From Escherichia phage p000y, in sequence record MK047718.1: a DNA stretch of 64,000 nt. One strand, written 5' to 3'. Shown one piece after another: positions 38,093-53,859 of the stretch (position 1 is its first letter; the number at the start of each line of letters is the position of its first letter). The notes under the pieces were generated by a model. It saw only the letters and a list, made by a program, of their open reading frames with translations, made no database searches and was not told where the DNA came from. The translations under genes and the position numbers were made by a program.

Positions 38093-38104
38093 TATTTATA
38101 AATA
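38093..38104. promoter_or_regulatory. Overlapping divergent late promoters (palindrome TATTTATAAATA) for genes 51 and 26
   Basis: TATAAATA readable on both strands, upstream of both divergent ATGs. Confidence 0.65.
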
Positions 38105-39897: not shown

Positions 39898-40065
39898 ATG
39901 TCAGATAAGATTTGTGTTGTCTGTAAAACTCCAATCGATTCTGCATTGGTTGTTGAAACAGACAAAGGTCCAGCACATCCTGGTCCTTGTTATAATTATG
40001 TACAACAATTGCCGGTTTCAGAAAGTTCAGAAGAGCAATTGAACGAAACCCAACTTTTACTATAG
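39898..40065 (+). CDS. Small Cys-containing protein (uvsY.-2 position), 55 aa
   Basis: Hand translation MSDKICVVCKTPIDSALVVETDKGPAHPGPCYNYVQQLPVSESSEEQLNETQLLL; AGGAGG RBS; late promoter TATAAATA at 39861; followed by hairpin plus T7 terminator. Confidence 0.55.
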   Translation: MSDKICVVCKTPIDSALVVETDKGPAHPGPCYNYVQQLPVSESSEEQLNETQLLL

Positions 40066-40091
40066 TGTTACCTTTTTTGCCTATGGTTTTT

Positions 40092-40121
40092 GGCCCTTCC
40101 AAAAAGGTCGGGCCTTTTTTT
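40092..40121 (+). terminator. Hairpin + T7 terminator between convergent uvsY block and uvsW.1
   Basis: GGCCC...GGGCC stem followed by ttttttt. Confidence 0.6.
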
Positions 40122-40123
40122 AA

Positions 40124-40357
40124 TTAGAAGTCTTCTTCCTCATCCTCATCATCGTCGCCTTCAAGTTCGGCACGCTTACCTGCTAAGGCATCCCTGACAG
40201 AAATATCGTCTGTATCTTTTAATTCCGTTTCTTTTATACGTTTCTTATAATAAGCTTCCAATTCTTCAAGCCCTTCTAAGGTATGACAACTAGCAATTTT
40301 ACCCATGAATTCGTCAATAGATGCTTCGTATAAAAATTGTTTAAATTCAAGTACCAT
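40124..40357 (-). CDS. uvsW.1: UvsW.1-like small acidic protein
   Basis: 77 aa with acidic C-terminal tail, immediately downstream of uvsW. Confidence 0.7.
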   Translation of the reverse strand: MVLEFKQFLYEASIDEFMGKIASCHTLEGLEELEAYYKKRIKETELKDTDDISVRDALAGKRAELEGDDDEDEEEDF

Positions 40358-40368
40358 TTTTATCTCCT

Positions 40369-40384
40369 AAGGGCCGAAGCCCTT
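40369..40384 (-). terminator. UUCG-loop hairpin between uvsW and uvsW.1
   Basis: AAGGGC-CGAA-GCCCUU perfect stem (UUCG on minus strand). Confidence 0.55.
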
Positions 40385-41897
40385 ATAAATTAATTGTTTT
40401 CATTACATAGTTAAATTTCTCATCAGCGTAACGTTGGATACGATCAATACCGTGTTTTAACAAGTAATTAAGATGAGTATACTTCTTTTTAGTATTTAAT
40501 GATTTAGGTTTTACACCTGCATCGTCGATGAGATCCCAAACTGTAGCAACAGCTTTAGAACCATGCTTGCGAAGCACACGACCTACGGTTTGAAGTACGA
40601 TAATTTTTGATTTAACACCATGAGCAAAAATAACATGATGAAGATTCTTTACTGAAATACCAGTAGAGAATACTCCATATGATGCGACAATAATAATGCC
40701 TTTACCATTTTCTGCCATGACTTTAAGCGCGTTACGTGTTTCAGTATCAACTTCACCTGATACGTAATAAACTTTTTCGTATCCAAGCTCTTTAATAGCT
40801 TCAAATATTTCTTTACCGTGTGTAACGTGTTTAAACATTACAAAGGCGTTCTCGTCTTTCTTGGCCAATTTGACTGAAAGTTGGGCAATCCACTTTGTAC
40901 GTCGTTTTAGTCCGGTAATAATTTTAACTTCTTCTTGGTATGTTTTACCTTTTAATTTAGTGGCGAATTCGTCCGGATAACGAAGGAAAATACTATTAAT
41001 CTTAAGCTCAGTTACCTGTCCGTCTTCCATTAATTTAGACGTGCTAACAGGACGGAAGATTTCGCCGAACATACCTACGTACTGCATTACATTGGCTTTT
41101 CCGTCTCTTAATGAGCCGGATAAACCGAATTTAAACATGCAATTATTTAATCCTGAGATGATTGAAGAAATACTTTTGCCTGTTGCTAAGTGGCATTCAT
41201 CGTTCATCATCATACCGAACTGAGAGAACCATTCTTTAGGCTGCTTAACTACCGTTTGCCATGTGCCAACAATAATTGGAGCGTCGTTTTTAGATTTGTC
41301 TGCTTTATCAGCACCACCGCCAATTTTCTTAATCATCGAATGACTAAACAAGCGATAATCAACAAAATCATTAGCCATCTGGGTTGTCAATGCTGTTGTA
41401 GGGACGATAATGAGAATTTTACCTTCATAGTTCTCTAGATAATATCGAGCTAAAAGTGCTTGGATTAGTGATTTACCTGCTGATGTCGGAAGGTTTAAAA
41501 TTCGACGACGATTAACTAGTCCTTCATATACTGCATCTTTTTGATACCAATGTGGTTCGATTTTGGAGTTGCCTGAATAAATTTCTTGTTTAGAAAGCCA
41601 TGCGTCAAAATCTTCTCTGGTAAGGTCTTCGGTCTCAAAGATTTTAGGGTCAATCCATACAGAATAACTCATATTGCTACAGAACTTTTTTATTTGTCCT
41701 ACAAGGCCATATGGTAACAAACGGTTGTAATCTAAAAGACGAATTCTACCATCCCAGTTCCCATATTTGTAACGCGGGTTGAATTTGTACCCATCGGCTT
41801 CAAAGCTAAAAAAGTCGCGTAATTCATAGAACACGCTTTCGTCGCATTCAATTCTTACATGGCTAAAATCATGAAAATGTACTTTAATATCTGTCAT
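40383..41897 (-). CDS. uvsW: RNA-DNA/DNA-DNA helicase UvsW
   Basis: 504 aa; SF2 helicase motifs (PTSAGKS, DECH); matches T4 UvsW. Confidence 0.93.
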   Translation of the reverse strand: MTDIKVHFHDFSHVRIECDESVFYELRDFFSFEADGYKFNPRYKYGNWDGRIRLLDYNRLLPYGLVGQIKKFCSNMSYSVWIDPKIFETEDLTREDFDAWLSKQEIYSGNSKIEPHWYQKDAVYEGLVNRRRILNLPTSAGKSLIQALLARYYLENYEGKILIIVPTTALTTQMANDFVDYRLFSHSMIKKIGGGADKADKSKNDAPIIVGTWQTVVKQPKEWFSQFGMMMNDECHLATGKSISSIISGLNNCMFKFGLSGSLRDGKANVMQYVGMFGEIFRPVSTSKLMEDGQVTELKINSIFLRYPDEFATKLKGKTYQEEVKIITGLKRRTKWIAQLSVKLAKKDENAFVMFKHVTHGKEIFEAIKELGYEKVYYVSGEVDTETRNALKVMAENGKGIIIVASYGVFSTGISVKNLHHVIFAHGVKSKIIVLQTVGRVLRKHGSKAVATVWDLIDDAGVKPKSLNTKKKYTHLNYLLKHGIDRIQRYADEKFNYVMKTINL

Positions 41898-41902
41898 AAT
41901 AA

Positions 41903-42646
41903 TTACCTTAAACGGCCTTTAACATATCCATCTGGGATGGATAACGGATTTACTAATTTATTTATAGCCCCGTTATTTACCCATATTCTGCCGGTGGTCG
42001 TAGGTTTTACTTCACAACCCTTTCTAGATTTTCTATTAAGTTGGACCATTCCTTTTACAAATCCTTCAGGCATCGGGTCCTCGGCTGATATAAATCTGTT
42101 TTCTTTACCGTTGTTAACACAAATTTTATTTAGAGTTGTAGGATTTTTAGGACCTTTAATTTTATCAATCTTTGGCTTTCCTGTACCATACCGCCCGTGG
42201 CATGTTGGGTCTTCAGAGTATCGACGTTTATTTGTTTCAGATAGTTTTCTTTTTGTTTCTTCCGATCTGTGTTTTCCTAAAAGATTATGACCAAGCCTCT
42301 TTATTCGTTCTTTAGCACTATTAGACATTTTAATCTTATCAGCTTCGGTGTACTTATACCTTCCACCTTCACCGCCTTGGCGCATATTATAATACTCGTT
42401 AGATTTGACCAAATCCTCTGTTACTAACTGAGCTTCGTATTCTAAAGCTTCAGCGGAAGTTTCAAATTGTTTAATTATTGAACGTTTAAATGATTCTTCT
42501 CCGTATTTTTTGATAGCGCGATTTAAGGCAACACCTGACCCTAGATACGAATCATTTAAATTTTCTGTAGAATGTTTGCCAATGTACTTTTTACCATTGA
42601 TTAAATTTACGGTCTCATAAACAAAGTGATACATACTCTTTTCCAT
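41903..42646 (-). CDS. GIY-YIG homing endonuclease (Seg-like, at the T4 segE locus next to uvsW)
   Basis: Motif YHFVYETVNLINGKKYIGKH (GIY-YIG) near N-terminus; late promoter TATAAATA at 42670-42663 favours ATG 42646 (or 42634) over track start 42685. Confidence 0.75.
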   Translation of the reverse strand: MEKSMYHFVYETVNLINGKKYIGKHSTENLNDSYLGSGVALNRAIKKYGEESFKRSIIKQFETSAEALEYEAQLVTEDLVKSNEYYNMRQGGEGGRYKYTEADKIKMSNSAKERIKRLGHNLLGKHRSEETKRKLSETNKRRYSEDPTCHGRYGTGKPKIDKIKGPKNPTTLNKICVNNGKENRFISAEDPMPEGFVKGMVQLNRKSRKGCEVKPTTTGRIWVNNGAINKLVNPLSIPDGYVKGRLR

Positions 42647-42662
42647 GTAATAAATATAGTTA

Positions 42663-42670
42663 TATTTATA
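42663..42670 (-). promoter_or_regulatory. Late promoter (TATAAATA) for Seg-like endonuclease
   Basis: tatttata within cassette atagttatatttata shared with gene 19/20 promoters. Confidence 0.55.
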
Positions 42671-42683
42671 ATGAGGAAATATC

Positions 42684-43352
42684 ATGATCGATAAAGACTA
42701 TATTGAAGAGTTACGTGCTCTTTCTGATAAAAAGGAAGCCAAAGCTAAACTGTTCGAATATGCGAAACAATTTGGCATTAGTGTTAAGAAAACAAAATCA
42801 TTCGATAATATTGTTATTGATATCGAAGAAGCTCTTAACGCACTGGCTGATGAACCATTACCTGAAACCGATGGATTATCTATCACCGATTTAATTACTG
42901 CCGCAGATGATGTGGACGGTGTTAATTTCACCAACGAAGAAGTTAAAGAAGAAGCTATTCTGTTGTTTGATTCTCCAACAGAACAAGTTGAAGTATTAGA
43001 AGTTGTCGAACAAGAAAAAGAATTCGACCATGATAAATTCGAAGAAGCAATTACTCAGGTTGTTGAATCCGAAAAAGAGTCTGAGACAGAGGTAAATAAA
43101 GAAGTAAAATTTGTTCTGCCTGAAAATTTTAGTCCTACACTCATTAAATTAGGCAAAGCCCCAGGATATGTTACTGTTCCTTGGTGGATTTATCAATGGA
43201 TAGCCGAAACCCCAGATTGGAAATCTCGTCCAACCAGTTTTGTGCACGCTTCTGCTCACCAAACATTATTTAGCTTAATTTATTATATTAATCGCGATGG
43301 ATCAGTTCTAATTCGTGAAACTCGTAATTCTTCTTTCGTAACATTAAAATAA
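42684..43352 (+). CDS. inh: Inh-like protein (inhibitor of prohead protease), assigned by synteny
   Basis: 222-aa acidic ORF directly upstream of hoc, at the T4 inh position; GAGGA RBS. Confidence 0.55.
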   Translation: MIDKDYIEELRALSDKKEAKAKLFEYAKQFGISVKKTKSFDNIVIDIEEALNALADEPLPETDGLSITDLITAADDVDGVNFTNEEVKEEAILLFDSPTEQVEVLEVVEQEKEFDHDKFEEAITQVVESEKESETEVNKEVKFVLPENFSPTLIKLGKAPGYVTVPWWIYQWIAETPDWKSRPTSFVHASAHQTLFSLIYYINRDGSVLIRETRNSSFVTLK

Positions 43353-43361
43353 GGATAACTT

Positions 43362-44492
43362 ATGGCTTTTACAGTTGATATAACTCCTAAAACACCTACT
43401 GGAGTTATAGATGAGACTAAGCAGTTTACTGCTGCACCCAGTGGTCAAACTGAAGGTGGAACTATTACCTATGCGTGGAGTGTAGACGATGCTCCTCAAG
43501 TAGGATCGGCAGAAACTTTTGATTACGTGTTAAAAGGACCTGCTGGAACAAAAACAATTAAAGTTGTTGCAACAAATACTATTCCTGATACTGACGCTGA
43601 AACAGCAGAAATTACTACGACTATCACGGTTAAAAATAAAACTCAGTCAACTACGTTGGCAGTAACTCCCAATAGTCCTTCAGCTGGAGTAATTGGAACT
43701 CCAGTTCAATTTACTGCTGCCTTAGCTTCTCAACCGGCTGGAGCGTCTGCTACGTATCAGTGGTATGTAGATGATTCACAGGTTGGCGGAGAAACTAACT
43801 CTACATTTAGCTATACTCCAACTACAAGTGGAGTAAAAAGAATTAAATGTGTAGCCCAAGTAACTGCGACAGATTATGATGCAAAGGAAGTTACTTCGAA
43901 TGAAGTATCATTAACGGTTAATAAGAAGACAATGAATCCACAGGTTACATTGACTCCTCCTTCTATTAGCGTTCAGCAAGATGCTTCGGCTACATTTACG
44001 GCTAATGTTACGGATGCTCCAGAAGAAGCGCAAATTGCGTATTCATGGAAGAAAGATTCTTCTCCTGTAGAAGGGACAACTAATGTATATACCGTTGATA
44101 CCTCGTCTATTGGAAGTCAAACTATTGAAGTTACTGCAACTATTACTGCAACTGATTACGATAGCAAAACTATTACAGCAGAAGGTCAAGTTCAAGTAAC
44201 CGATAAAGTTGCTCCAGAACCAGAAGGTGAATTACCTTATGTCCATCCTCTTCCACATCGTACTTCAGCTTACATCTGGTGCGGTTGGTGGGTTATGGAT
44301 GAAATCCAAAAAATGACTGAAGAAGGTAAAGATTGGAAAACTGAAGATCCAGATAGTAAATACTACCTGCATCGTTACACTCTTCAGAAGATGATGAAAG
44401 ACTATCCGGAAGTTGATGTTCAAGAATCACGTAATGGATACATCATCCATAAAACTGCTTTGGAAACTGGTATCATCTATACATATCCATAA
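43362..44492 (+). CDS. hoc: Highly immunogenic outer capsid protein Hoc
   Basis: 376 aa, MAFTVDITPKTPTGVIDETKQFTAAPSGQT... with Ig-like repeats; matches T4 Hoc closely. Confidence 0.95.
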   Translation: MAFTVDITPKTPTGVIDETKQFTAAPSGQTEGGTITYAWSVDDAPQVGSAETFDYVLKGPAGTKTIKVVATNTIPDTDAETAEITTTITVKNKTQSTTLAVTPNSPSAGVIGTPVQFTAALASQPAGASATYQWYVDDSQVGGETNSTFSYTPTTSGVKRIKCVAQVTATDYDAKEVTSNEVSLTVNKKTMNPQVTLTPPSISVQQDASATFTANVTDAPEEAQIAYSWKKDSSPVEGTTNVYTVDTSSIGSQTIEVTATITATDYDSKTITAEGQVQVTDKVAPEPEGELPYVHPLPHRTSAYIWCGWWVMDEIQKMTEEGKDWKTEDPDSKYYLHRYTLQKMMKDYPEVDVQESRNGYIIHKTALETGIIYTYP

Positions 44493-44496
44493 TCGT

Positions 44497-44514
44497 AAGG
44501 GGCTTCGGCCCCTT
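44497..44514 (+). terminator. UUCG-loop terminator after hoc
   Basis: AAGGGGC-UUCG-GCCCCUU then U-rich. Confidence 0.75.
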
Positions 44515-44587
44515 TCTTCGTTTTTAAAGCATACAAAACACAACTTGAGATTGATGTATATAATGGCACAAACCAAATAATACGGGA

Positions 44588-44788
44588 TTGATTATGAGAG
44601 CTGAAGTTGAAGTTTATACATTACATGAGGCGGGATTTTCATTCGTAGAAATTGCTCAAAAAATTGGTTTACAACCTAAAGAAGTTGGATTACTATGGAC
44701 TAAAGCCGAGACAGCTCGGTCAAAGTTTAAAGCAAAAGAAAAAGTTGTATACCGTAAACGTTTGATTAACAAAAAGGTGAAGAAATGA
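44588..44788 (+). CDS. Hypothetical small protein with possible helix-turn-helix
   Basis: 66 aa; segment FSFVEIAQKIGLQPKEVG looks HTH-like; basic C-terminus. Confidence 0.45.
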   Translation: MIMRAEVEVYTLHEAGFSFVEIAQKIGLQPKEVGLLWTKAETARSKFKAKEKVVYRKRLINKKVKK

Positions 44789-53202: not shown

Positions 53203-53230
53203 TGTATTCTCCGAATGGGAATTATAGTTA

Positions 53231-53238
53231 TATTTATA
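53231..53238 (-). promoter_or_regulatory. Late promoter (TATAAATA) for gene 20
   Basis: tatttata in cassette atagttatatttatatgg; preceded on minus strand by hairpin 53265-53280 (UGGGGA-GAAA-UCCCCA). Confidence 0.65.
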
Positions 53239-53778: not shown

Positions 53779-53851
53779 ATTAGCCTCTGTAGTAATATGG
53801 GCTTAGGATTAACCAGATGCCCATAGAATTAATTTTTAAACGATATAGTTA

Positions 53852-53859
53852 TATTTATA
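53852..53859 (-). promoter_or_regulatory. Late promoter (TATAAATA) for gene 19
   Basis: Same cassette atagttatatttatatgg as at 53231; preceded by hairpin 53861-53878. Confidence 0.65.

Follow-up and report, generated by a model that had tools for sequence, protein, structure and literature searches.

Genes and promoters between uvsW and inh

The window, by which we mean the whole 64,000-nucleotide stretch of Escherichia phage p000y (MK047718.1) that was analyzed, belongs to Mosigvirus, i.e., to the RB69-like T-even phages, and its best GenBank matches are NBG1, JM17, and NicPhage (~98% identity over 24 kb). Its minus strand carries an open reading frame (ORF) at positions 41903..42685 (260 amino acids [aa]) that includes MYHFVYETVNLINGKKYIGKH. 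Within this ORF, we place the coding sequence of a SegE-type GIY-YIG endonuclease at 41903..42634 on the minus strand (243 aa plus stop codon). The uvsW helicase gene (40383..41897, minus strand, 504 aa) lies directly downstream, with 5 nt between the endonuclease stop codon and the uvsW ATG. On the upstream side, inh (42684..43352) and hoc (43362..44492) are encoded on the plus strand and diverge from the endonuclease gene. Several GenBank relatives already carry the annotation "homing endonuclease" for this gene. The original prediction had called it a Seg-like GIY-YIG homing endonuclease at the uvsW-adjacent site that such a gene occupies in T4, and the analysis agrees on both counts: the gene is located exactly at the T4 segE position, between inh (hoc.1) and uvsW and transcribed toward uvsW, and its product exceeds the Pfam cut-offs for the SegE_GIY-YIG and GIY-YIG families and has an I-TevI-like predicted fold. 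The most likely reading is an intact gene for a free-standing GIY-YIG homing endonuclease of the T4 SegE family, situated between uvsW and the uvsW late promoter.

To define the limits of the element, we aligned 11 filled Mosigvirus loci (the window and 10 other carriers) with 8 empty ones. The inserted element spans 41908..42644 and measures ~736 to 737 bp, its ends being ambiguous by a 2-nt CC/GG repeat, and the downstream junction coincides exactly with the TAA stop codon of the endonuclease gene. At the empty sites, uvsW and inh are both complete and are 50 nt apart.

An exact copy of the late-promoter box, TATAAATA, is found at 42663..42670 on the minus strand, 28 nt upstream of the ATG at 42634. 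The window contains 20 exact copies of TATAAATA, compared with 7 ± 3 in shuffled sequences, and none of 100 shuffles reached 20. A T4-type late-promoter box ahead of the gene had been proposed, and this exact copy, which is conserved in T4 and RB30, bears the proposal out. The box was also said to belong to the cassette used by genes 19 and 20, and we indeed found that the 15-mer ATAGTTATATTTATA has three exact occurrences, one at 42656 and two others that precede the gp20 portal gene (53224) and the gp19 tail tube gene (53845). The box is not, however, the endonuclease gene's own promoter, since relatives without the gene keep an identical box. The Mosigvirus empty sites share an identical 37 nt in which the box lies 29 nt upstream of the uvsW ATG, and RB30 (Tequatrovirus) is arranged alike. 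Because the box is also present in genomes without the gene, at this distance before uvsW, the element must have inserted between the uvsW promoter and the uvsW ATG. In T4, a late promoter drives the expression of UvsW (PMC3016281). On this comparison of filled and empty loci, the box at 42663 to 42670 is the resident uvsW late promoter, which lies outside the element and has been hijacked by the endonuclease gene. In this arrangement, the ATG of the element is 28 nt past TATAAATA, in place of the uvsW ATG that is 29 nt past the same box in an empty genome.

A second exact TATAAATA is located at 41959..41966 (minus strand), inside the 3' end of the endonuclease gene and 61 nt upstream of the uvsW ATG. 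This embedded copy falls in Ala-Ile-Asn codons, and the homologous place in T4 segE reads AATAAATA. It is a candidate replacement late promoter for uvsW, or it could be a coincidence of the Ala-Ile-Asn codons. A matching layout has been described for T4 segE, with one promoter in the noncoding DNA that precedes it and another, serving the next gene, within its own ORF (PMC2988022). SegA, SegG, MobB, and MobC likewise use an upstream host promoter and have the promoter of the downstream host gene embedded in their ORFs (PMC2988022), although they occupy other loci and have other target genes (gene 32 in the case of SegG).

A sigma-70-like promoter was not found ahead of the endonuclease gene, nor was an intrinsic terminator between this gene and uvsW, and the two genes are probably cotranscribed. 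The endonuclease gene would then be the first cistron of a late segE-uvsW-uvsW.1 message, with uvsW served by read-through and possibly also by the embedded TATAAATA. Folding of the 5' leader RNA gave no significant signal (z = −0.3 and −1.1). In a read-through transcript, a UUUCC from upstream of the promoter can pair with the GGAAA before the ATG, but we do not interpret this pairing as regulatory, as this UUUCC is the complement of the inh ribosome-binding site.

The ORF has three in-frame ATGs, at 42685 (260 aa), 42646 (247 aa, beginning MEKSMYHF), and 42634 (243 aa, beginning MYHF). Of these, the ATG at 42634 is most likely the true start, judging from conservation. The MYHF start is equivalent in T4 SegE and most homologues, and a conserved GGAAAA(T/G)AGT precedes it in both T4 and the window. 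The presumed ribosome-binding region, GGAAAAGAGT (42635..42644, minus strand), stands directly before this ATG, and its T4 segE equivalent is GGAAAATAGT; the segE translation initiation region has been described as recognizable but with nonoptimal spacing (PMC2988022). It is unlikely that the protein is longer and starts at 42646 or 42685. The annotation of GenBank relatives is divided, with a length of 243 aa in five and of 247 aa (744 nt) in four, and the ATG at 42646, being 16 nt past the TATAAATA box, could sit on a late transcript; I-TevI also has four residues ahead of its GIY motif. This ATG was the one favored originally. However, like all of the sequence preceding it, this ATG belongs to the resident intergenic DNA that is unchanged in empty sites, its T4 equivalent is TCG, and the purine-rich ribosome-binding sequence is absent before it. 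The ATG at 42685 precedes the promoter box and overlaps the start codon of inh on the opposite strand; the suspicion that the 260-aa ORF is too long was thus correct.

Domains, catalytic residues, and homologues of the protein

The protein matches the Pfam family SegE_GIY-YIG (PF19835) with 30.3 bits (cut-off, 25) and GIY-YIG with 25.7 bits (cut-off, 22.6), and it also matches PHROG 314, "homing endonuclease" (E = 3e-43). A match to NUMOD3 (E = 0.01) fell under the Pfam cut-off, and a weak match to Rad52 (E = 0.034, with no domain passing) was dismissed as noise. A search of the Protein Data Bank (PDB) with the single sequence returned nothing relevant, and a family profile built from 50 homologues reached the I-TevI catalytic domain (1LN0) with an E value of 0.008. 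The AlphaFold model has a mean pLDDT of 82.7, with values of 97 to 98 over residues 1 to 80. When this model was compared to the PDB with Foldseek, the top matches were 1MK0 and 1LN0, both of the I-TevI catalytic domain (probability, 1.00; TM-score on target, 0.61), and nothing besides these two was retrieved at E < 1. The protein is therefore predicted to adopt the GIY-YIG alpha/beta catalytic fold at its N terminus.

The model and the sequence comparisons suggest three regions. The N-terminal GIY-YIG catalytic domain comprises residues 1 to 90 (42365..42634, minus strand) and is supported by the model, its Foldseek matches, and the family profile. A linker with two NUMOD3-like helices follows at residues 97 to 141 (42212..42346, minus strand), as indicated by the model and by the NUMOD3 match below the cut-off; the helices are predicted at residues 97 to 114 and 125 to 141, and a disordered stretch comes next. 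The C-terminal region, residues 168 to 243 (41906..42133, minus strand), consists of two repeated beta-hairpin modules with the pattern (I/W)VNNG-x-x-N ... P-(E/D)-G-(F/Y)-VKG, which align to each other with an E value of 5e-8 and for which the model predicts hairpins at residues 170 to 183 and 217 to 228. No Pfam family recognizes these repeats. The predicted plan is therefore that of an N-terminal nuclease, NUMOD3-like linker helices, and a C-terminal hairpin pair that presumably binds DNA.

The nearest characterized relative is SegE of T4 and RB59, to which the protein is 49% identical over its full length (BLASTP, E = 7e-77). T4 segE (hoc.2) shares with the window gene its locus and orientation, which are also those of RB59 segE, as well as its upstream junction, the TATAAATA box, and a conserved 5' leader. 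Read on the uvsW-sense strand, the two upstream junctions show base-for-base homology (TATAAATATAGATATATTTATTACTCGGAAAATAGTATGTACCAC in T4 and TATAAATATAACTATATTTATTACATGGAAAAGAGTATGTATCAC in the window). At the protein level, the GIY-YIG domain and the two C-terminal hairpin modules are well conserved between the two. They differ in the linker, where the window protein has ~50 extra residues; this segment, which is missing in T4 SegE, is formed by the linker helices and the subsequent disordered stretch and includes a second NUMOD3-like helix. Conversely, T4 SegE has a 12-residue C-terminal tail that is absent in the window protein. The T4 segE stop codon lies 2 nt before uvsW, compared to 5 nt in the window, and the embedded box is AATAAATA in T4 and an exact TATAAATA in the window.

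The next-closest homologues are a metagenomic protein (66% identity) and proteins of Yersinia phage MHG19 (53%) and Salmonella phage UTK0003 (47%). All are also encoded between inh and uvsW, and they vary in the number of linker helices and hairpin modules. Because these homologues sit at the same place with varied modules, sequence comparison identifies the inh-uvsW interval as an old homing site that is occupied by diverged, modularly shuffled SegE variants across the subfamily.

Compared to I-TevI of the T4 td intron (PDB codes 1LN0 and 1MK0), the window protein has the same predicted catalytic fold, and a two-domain plan with a flexible linker is common to both. I-TevI, though, is intron encoded, whereas the window gene is free-standing. 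For DNA binding, I-TevI has a zinc finger, a minor-groove helix, and a helix-turn-helix; in their place, the window protein has the predicted NUMOD3-like helices and the two beta-hairpin repeats.

Alignment with Seg proteins and I-TevI had been suggested as a check, with the absence of the catalytic Tyr, Arg, Glu, and Asn residues counting against the assignment. The alignment with T4 SegE and the reach of the family profile to I-TevI are in line with the assignment, and the named residues fare well with one exception. Across 50 homologues, Y6, Y17, G19, Y30, G32, G34, K43, E67, and N83 are invariant. The two halves of the signature, FVY (Y6) and YIG (Y17 to G19), stand at the N terminus with the spacing typical of the GIY and YIG motifs (~10 to 11 residues), and Y6, Y17, G19, E67, and N83 align with I-TevI Y6, Y17, G19, E75, and N90; both tyrosines and the catalytic Glu and Asn are thus in place. 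The exception is the catalytic arginine, since no Arg aligns with I-TevI R27 in the profile alignment of the 50 homologues. Residues 23 to 28 of I-TevI, which include R27, form an insertion relative to the SegE-type family. Between Y17 and E67, the family conserves no Arg; the residues conserved there are H21, D28, Y30, G32, S33, G34, and K43. In place of the R27/H31 helix of I-TevI, the family has a conserved Y-x-G-S-G loop (Y30, G32, S33, and G34). The Arg is absent from all 50 aligned homologues, T4 SegE included, and T4 SegE is counted in reviews among the demonstrated endonucleases and mobile elements (PMC2988022, PMC2330249). Because T4 SegE, although listed as demonstrated, also lacks this residue, we read its absence, on the basis of the alignment, as a trait of the SegE subfamily and not as a sign of inactivity.

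Distribution of the element and the linked uvsW block

Among 139 phage records with flanks at least 95% identical to those of the window, 10 carry the gene (~7%), and the remainder have a clean ~736-bp gap, as seen from two-piece megablast matches. T4 segE is also sporadic in its genus, where it is found in 159 of 501 records (~32%), so the window gene is the rarer of the two. The diversity of the element among its 11 copies is 0.33%, compared to 1.6 to 2.0% in uvsW and inh, which flank it in these same genomes, i.e., 5- to 6-fold lower. In uvsW beyond ~200 bp from the junction, divergence is 1.6%, 1.6%, and 1.5% (carriers, mixed, and non-carriers, respectively), and in inh it is 2.0%, 1.7%, and 1.0%. 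Since flank divergence is similar with and without the element, the carriers do not form a clade, and since the element is so much less diverse than its flanks, it must be much younger than the backbones in which it resides. The ORF is intact in 11 of 11 copies, and its variable codons comprise 7 synonymous and 2 nonsynonymous changes.

These data bear on whether the gene is a decayed or domesticated remnant, catalytically dead and kept in place because its removal would disturb uvsW expression. The lack of an alignable equivalent of I-TevI R27 could be taken in this way, and the position of the element between uvsW and its promoter, with a possible embedded promoter, is the kind of arrangement that has been argued to favor retention whatever the nuclease activity (PMC2988022). 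We nevertheless consider this very unlikely. The missing Arg is common to the whole aligned family, including the T4 enzyme listed as demonstrated (PMC2988022), and every other catalytic residue is invariant. The intact ORFs with mostly synonymous variation do not suggest decay, and a diversity so far under the flank values points to a recent spread and not to long residence. That the endonuclease is intron encoded, as the GenBank label "group I intron endonuclease" in the relative KAW3E185 and the best NCBIfam match (TIGR01453, of the same name) suggest, is scarcely credible, given that this match (51.8 bits) stays below its cut-off of 56.05 bits, that the ORF lies between two complete genes with no interrupted gene at the empty sites, and that an Rfam scan of 40000 to 44600 at E ≤ 1, which returned neither a group I intron nor another RNA family, rules out a group I intron there. 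The gene is thus intergenic, outside any intron or intein.

The presence of the element is associated with a block of differences in the first 81 bp of uvsW (41817..41897, minus strand). In these 81 bp, carriers differ from non-carriers by 18.5%, compared to 1.6% in the rest of uvsW, and divergence among non-carriers is 0.3%. Thirteen of uvsW codons 1 to 27 are changed, 11 of them synonymously. Single nucleotide polymorphisms (SNPs) at 41889, 41892, and 41898 are perfectly linked to the element; a further apparently diagnostic SNP, at 42469, proved to be an alignment artifact inside the insertion. The linked block is not of constant length, being reduced to the three proximal changes in BEU50 and to its distal part in two non-carriers, OLB35 and JM10. 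Such variable lengths are consistent with the pattern expected of co-conversion tracts, and ordinary recombination could also give it. The block is probably the zone of cleavage and co-conversion. On the inh/hoc side, no linked variants were seen. It had been proposed that the endonuclease shapes recombination around both uvsW and hoc; the association with mosaicism at uvsW supports the first half of this proposal, but the block is confined to the uvsW side.

Target site, proposed homing, and significance

The region between inh and uvsW in RB30 (GenBank Y13611) lacks segE. As summarized in two reviews that refer to the work of Kadyrov in 1997, T4 SegE cuts this RB30 region and homes with almost 100% efficiency (PMC2330249, PMC2988022); the cut site is given as intergenic in one (PMC2330249), whereas the target is given as uvsW in the other (PMC2988022). 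The Mosigvirus empty site is nearly identical to that of RB30, from TTATTACATGGTA through ATGACTGACATTAAAGTACATTTTTATGATTTTAGTCACGTG, so that the target site hardly differs between the two genera. Because of this near identity, sequence comparison indicates that the same site is available for attack in Mosigvirus.

The element-linked substitutions at the 5' end of uvsW are also partly shared between the genera. Compared to the empty alleles of both, the filled alleles of T4 and the window have in common GAC>GAT at codon 3, Tyr>His at codon 9, CAC>CAT at codon 13, and GTG>GTA at codon 14, and codon 2 of uvsW also differs from the empty allele in both filled alleles. These shared changes would fit self-immunity of the filled allele, common descent of the element together with its flank, or both.

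Taken with the family, the locus, and the distribution described above, we consider it very probable that the gene is a free-standing member of the SegE homing endonuclease lineage, resident in a Mosigvirus and wedged between the late promoter and the start codon of uvsW. We infer that, when a carrier and a relative that lacks the gene infect the same cell, the enzyme would be made late and would cleave the empty allele in or close to the 5' end of uvsW, and that recombinational repair templated by the donor would copy in the element along with a variable stretch of the donor uvsW 5' end. Ordinary homologous recombination and hitchhiking, instead of endonuclease-driven homing, could in principle also produce the low diversity of the element and the linked block.

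The locus does not challenge current understanding, as elements of this kind are well known. For the annotation of these phages, the gain is a SegE-family homing endonuclease of 243 aa and a late promoter that is credited to uvsW. The locus also provides a clean natural case of a selfish gene wedged between a host gene and its promoter, with a short, mostly synonymous co-conversion scar apparently left in the host gene. For phage genomics and the design of phage cocktails, it flags a place where mixed infections may bias the inheritance of uvsW and inh. More tentatively, the extra NUMOD3-type linker might give the Mosigvirus SegE variant a different reach from binding site to cut site than T4 SegE has, and in that case GAT3, His9, CAT13, and GTA14 would form a conserved code for self-immunity, traveling with SegE-type elements across genera; we regard this as a possibility with the odds against it. 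If it were true, the SegE variants would constitute a natural series for relating linker length to cleavage distance, and also for following the evolution of target immunity inside a gene of essential function.

Paired late promoter boxes in the window

The intergenic region between inh and uvsW contains a near-perfect 20-bp palindrome (42649-42670), ATAAATATA-GT-TATATTTAT. On the plus strand, its face reads AATAAATA and lies 27 nt upstream of the inh ATG, and on the minus strand the same 42649-42670 element presents TATAAATA, the T4-type late promoter box. This palindrome, which is also kept in T4 and RB30, resembles a late promoter that is compact and bidirectional. Two further exact TATAAATA boxes, on opposite strands, overlap at 38093-38104 (38093-38100, minus strand; 38097-38104, plus strand); this pair may constitute a further bidirectional late promoter.

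The exact 15-mer TATAAATATAACTAT is common to three late promoter regions of the window, all on the minus strand: those of segE/uvsW (42656-42670), gene 20, encoding the portal (53224-53238), and gene 19, encoding the tail tube (53845-53859). Because the 15-mer is identical at all three, their likeness reaches 7 nt past the TATAAATA box.

Possible leader pairing ahead of the endonuclease start codon

In read-through RNA coming from upstream of the late promoter, a UUUCC motif, complementary to the ribosome-binding site of inh, is able to pair with the GGAAA preceding the ATG of the SegE-type endonuclease, and in the predicted fold of this stretch (42600-42700, minus strand) the start codon is likewise paired. 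The UUUCC/GGAAA pairing is impossible in RNA begun at the late promoter. The leader fold across 42600-42700 of the minus strand was no better than those of shuffled sequences (z = -1.1); thus, the modeled pairing provides only a hint that endonuclease translation might be specific to the late transcript.

Variation at and around the locus in relatives

Among close relatives, hoc has a mean divergence of ~10 to 16% by alignment, far above that of neighboring genes. This variability was seen in the window (43362-44492) and at four relatives' loci (L012, L013, L014, and L018). The gene spans 1,131 nt in the window versus 1,416 nt in ESh27, is split by frameshifts in a20 and NRG-P0074, and is truncated in WFL6982.

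GenBank places phage ST2 (locus L020, OM982647.1) in Guernseyvirinae/Kagunavirus, yet its inh-uvsW locus is typical of Mosigvirus; JK45 (locus L004, MK962757.1) is listed under Tequatrovirus, yet it matches the window at 97% across the inh-uvsW region. Judged by these sequences, both GenBank taxonomy lines look wrong.

Two Salmonella-phage-like contigs (loci L027 and L028) have a homologue of SegE in the same position, adjoining an interrupted uvsW. In both, uvsW (L027, 3133-5630; L028, 1246-3743) is broken by Hint/intein-splicing domains and a 291-aa open reading frame, which suggests that a second mobile element, a putative intein possibly with its own endonuclease, resides inside uvsW.
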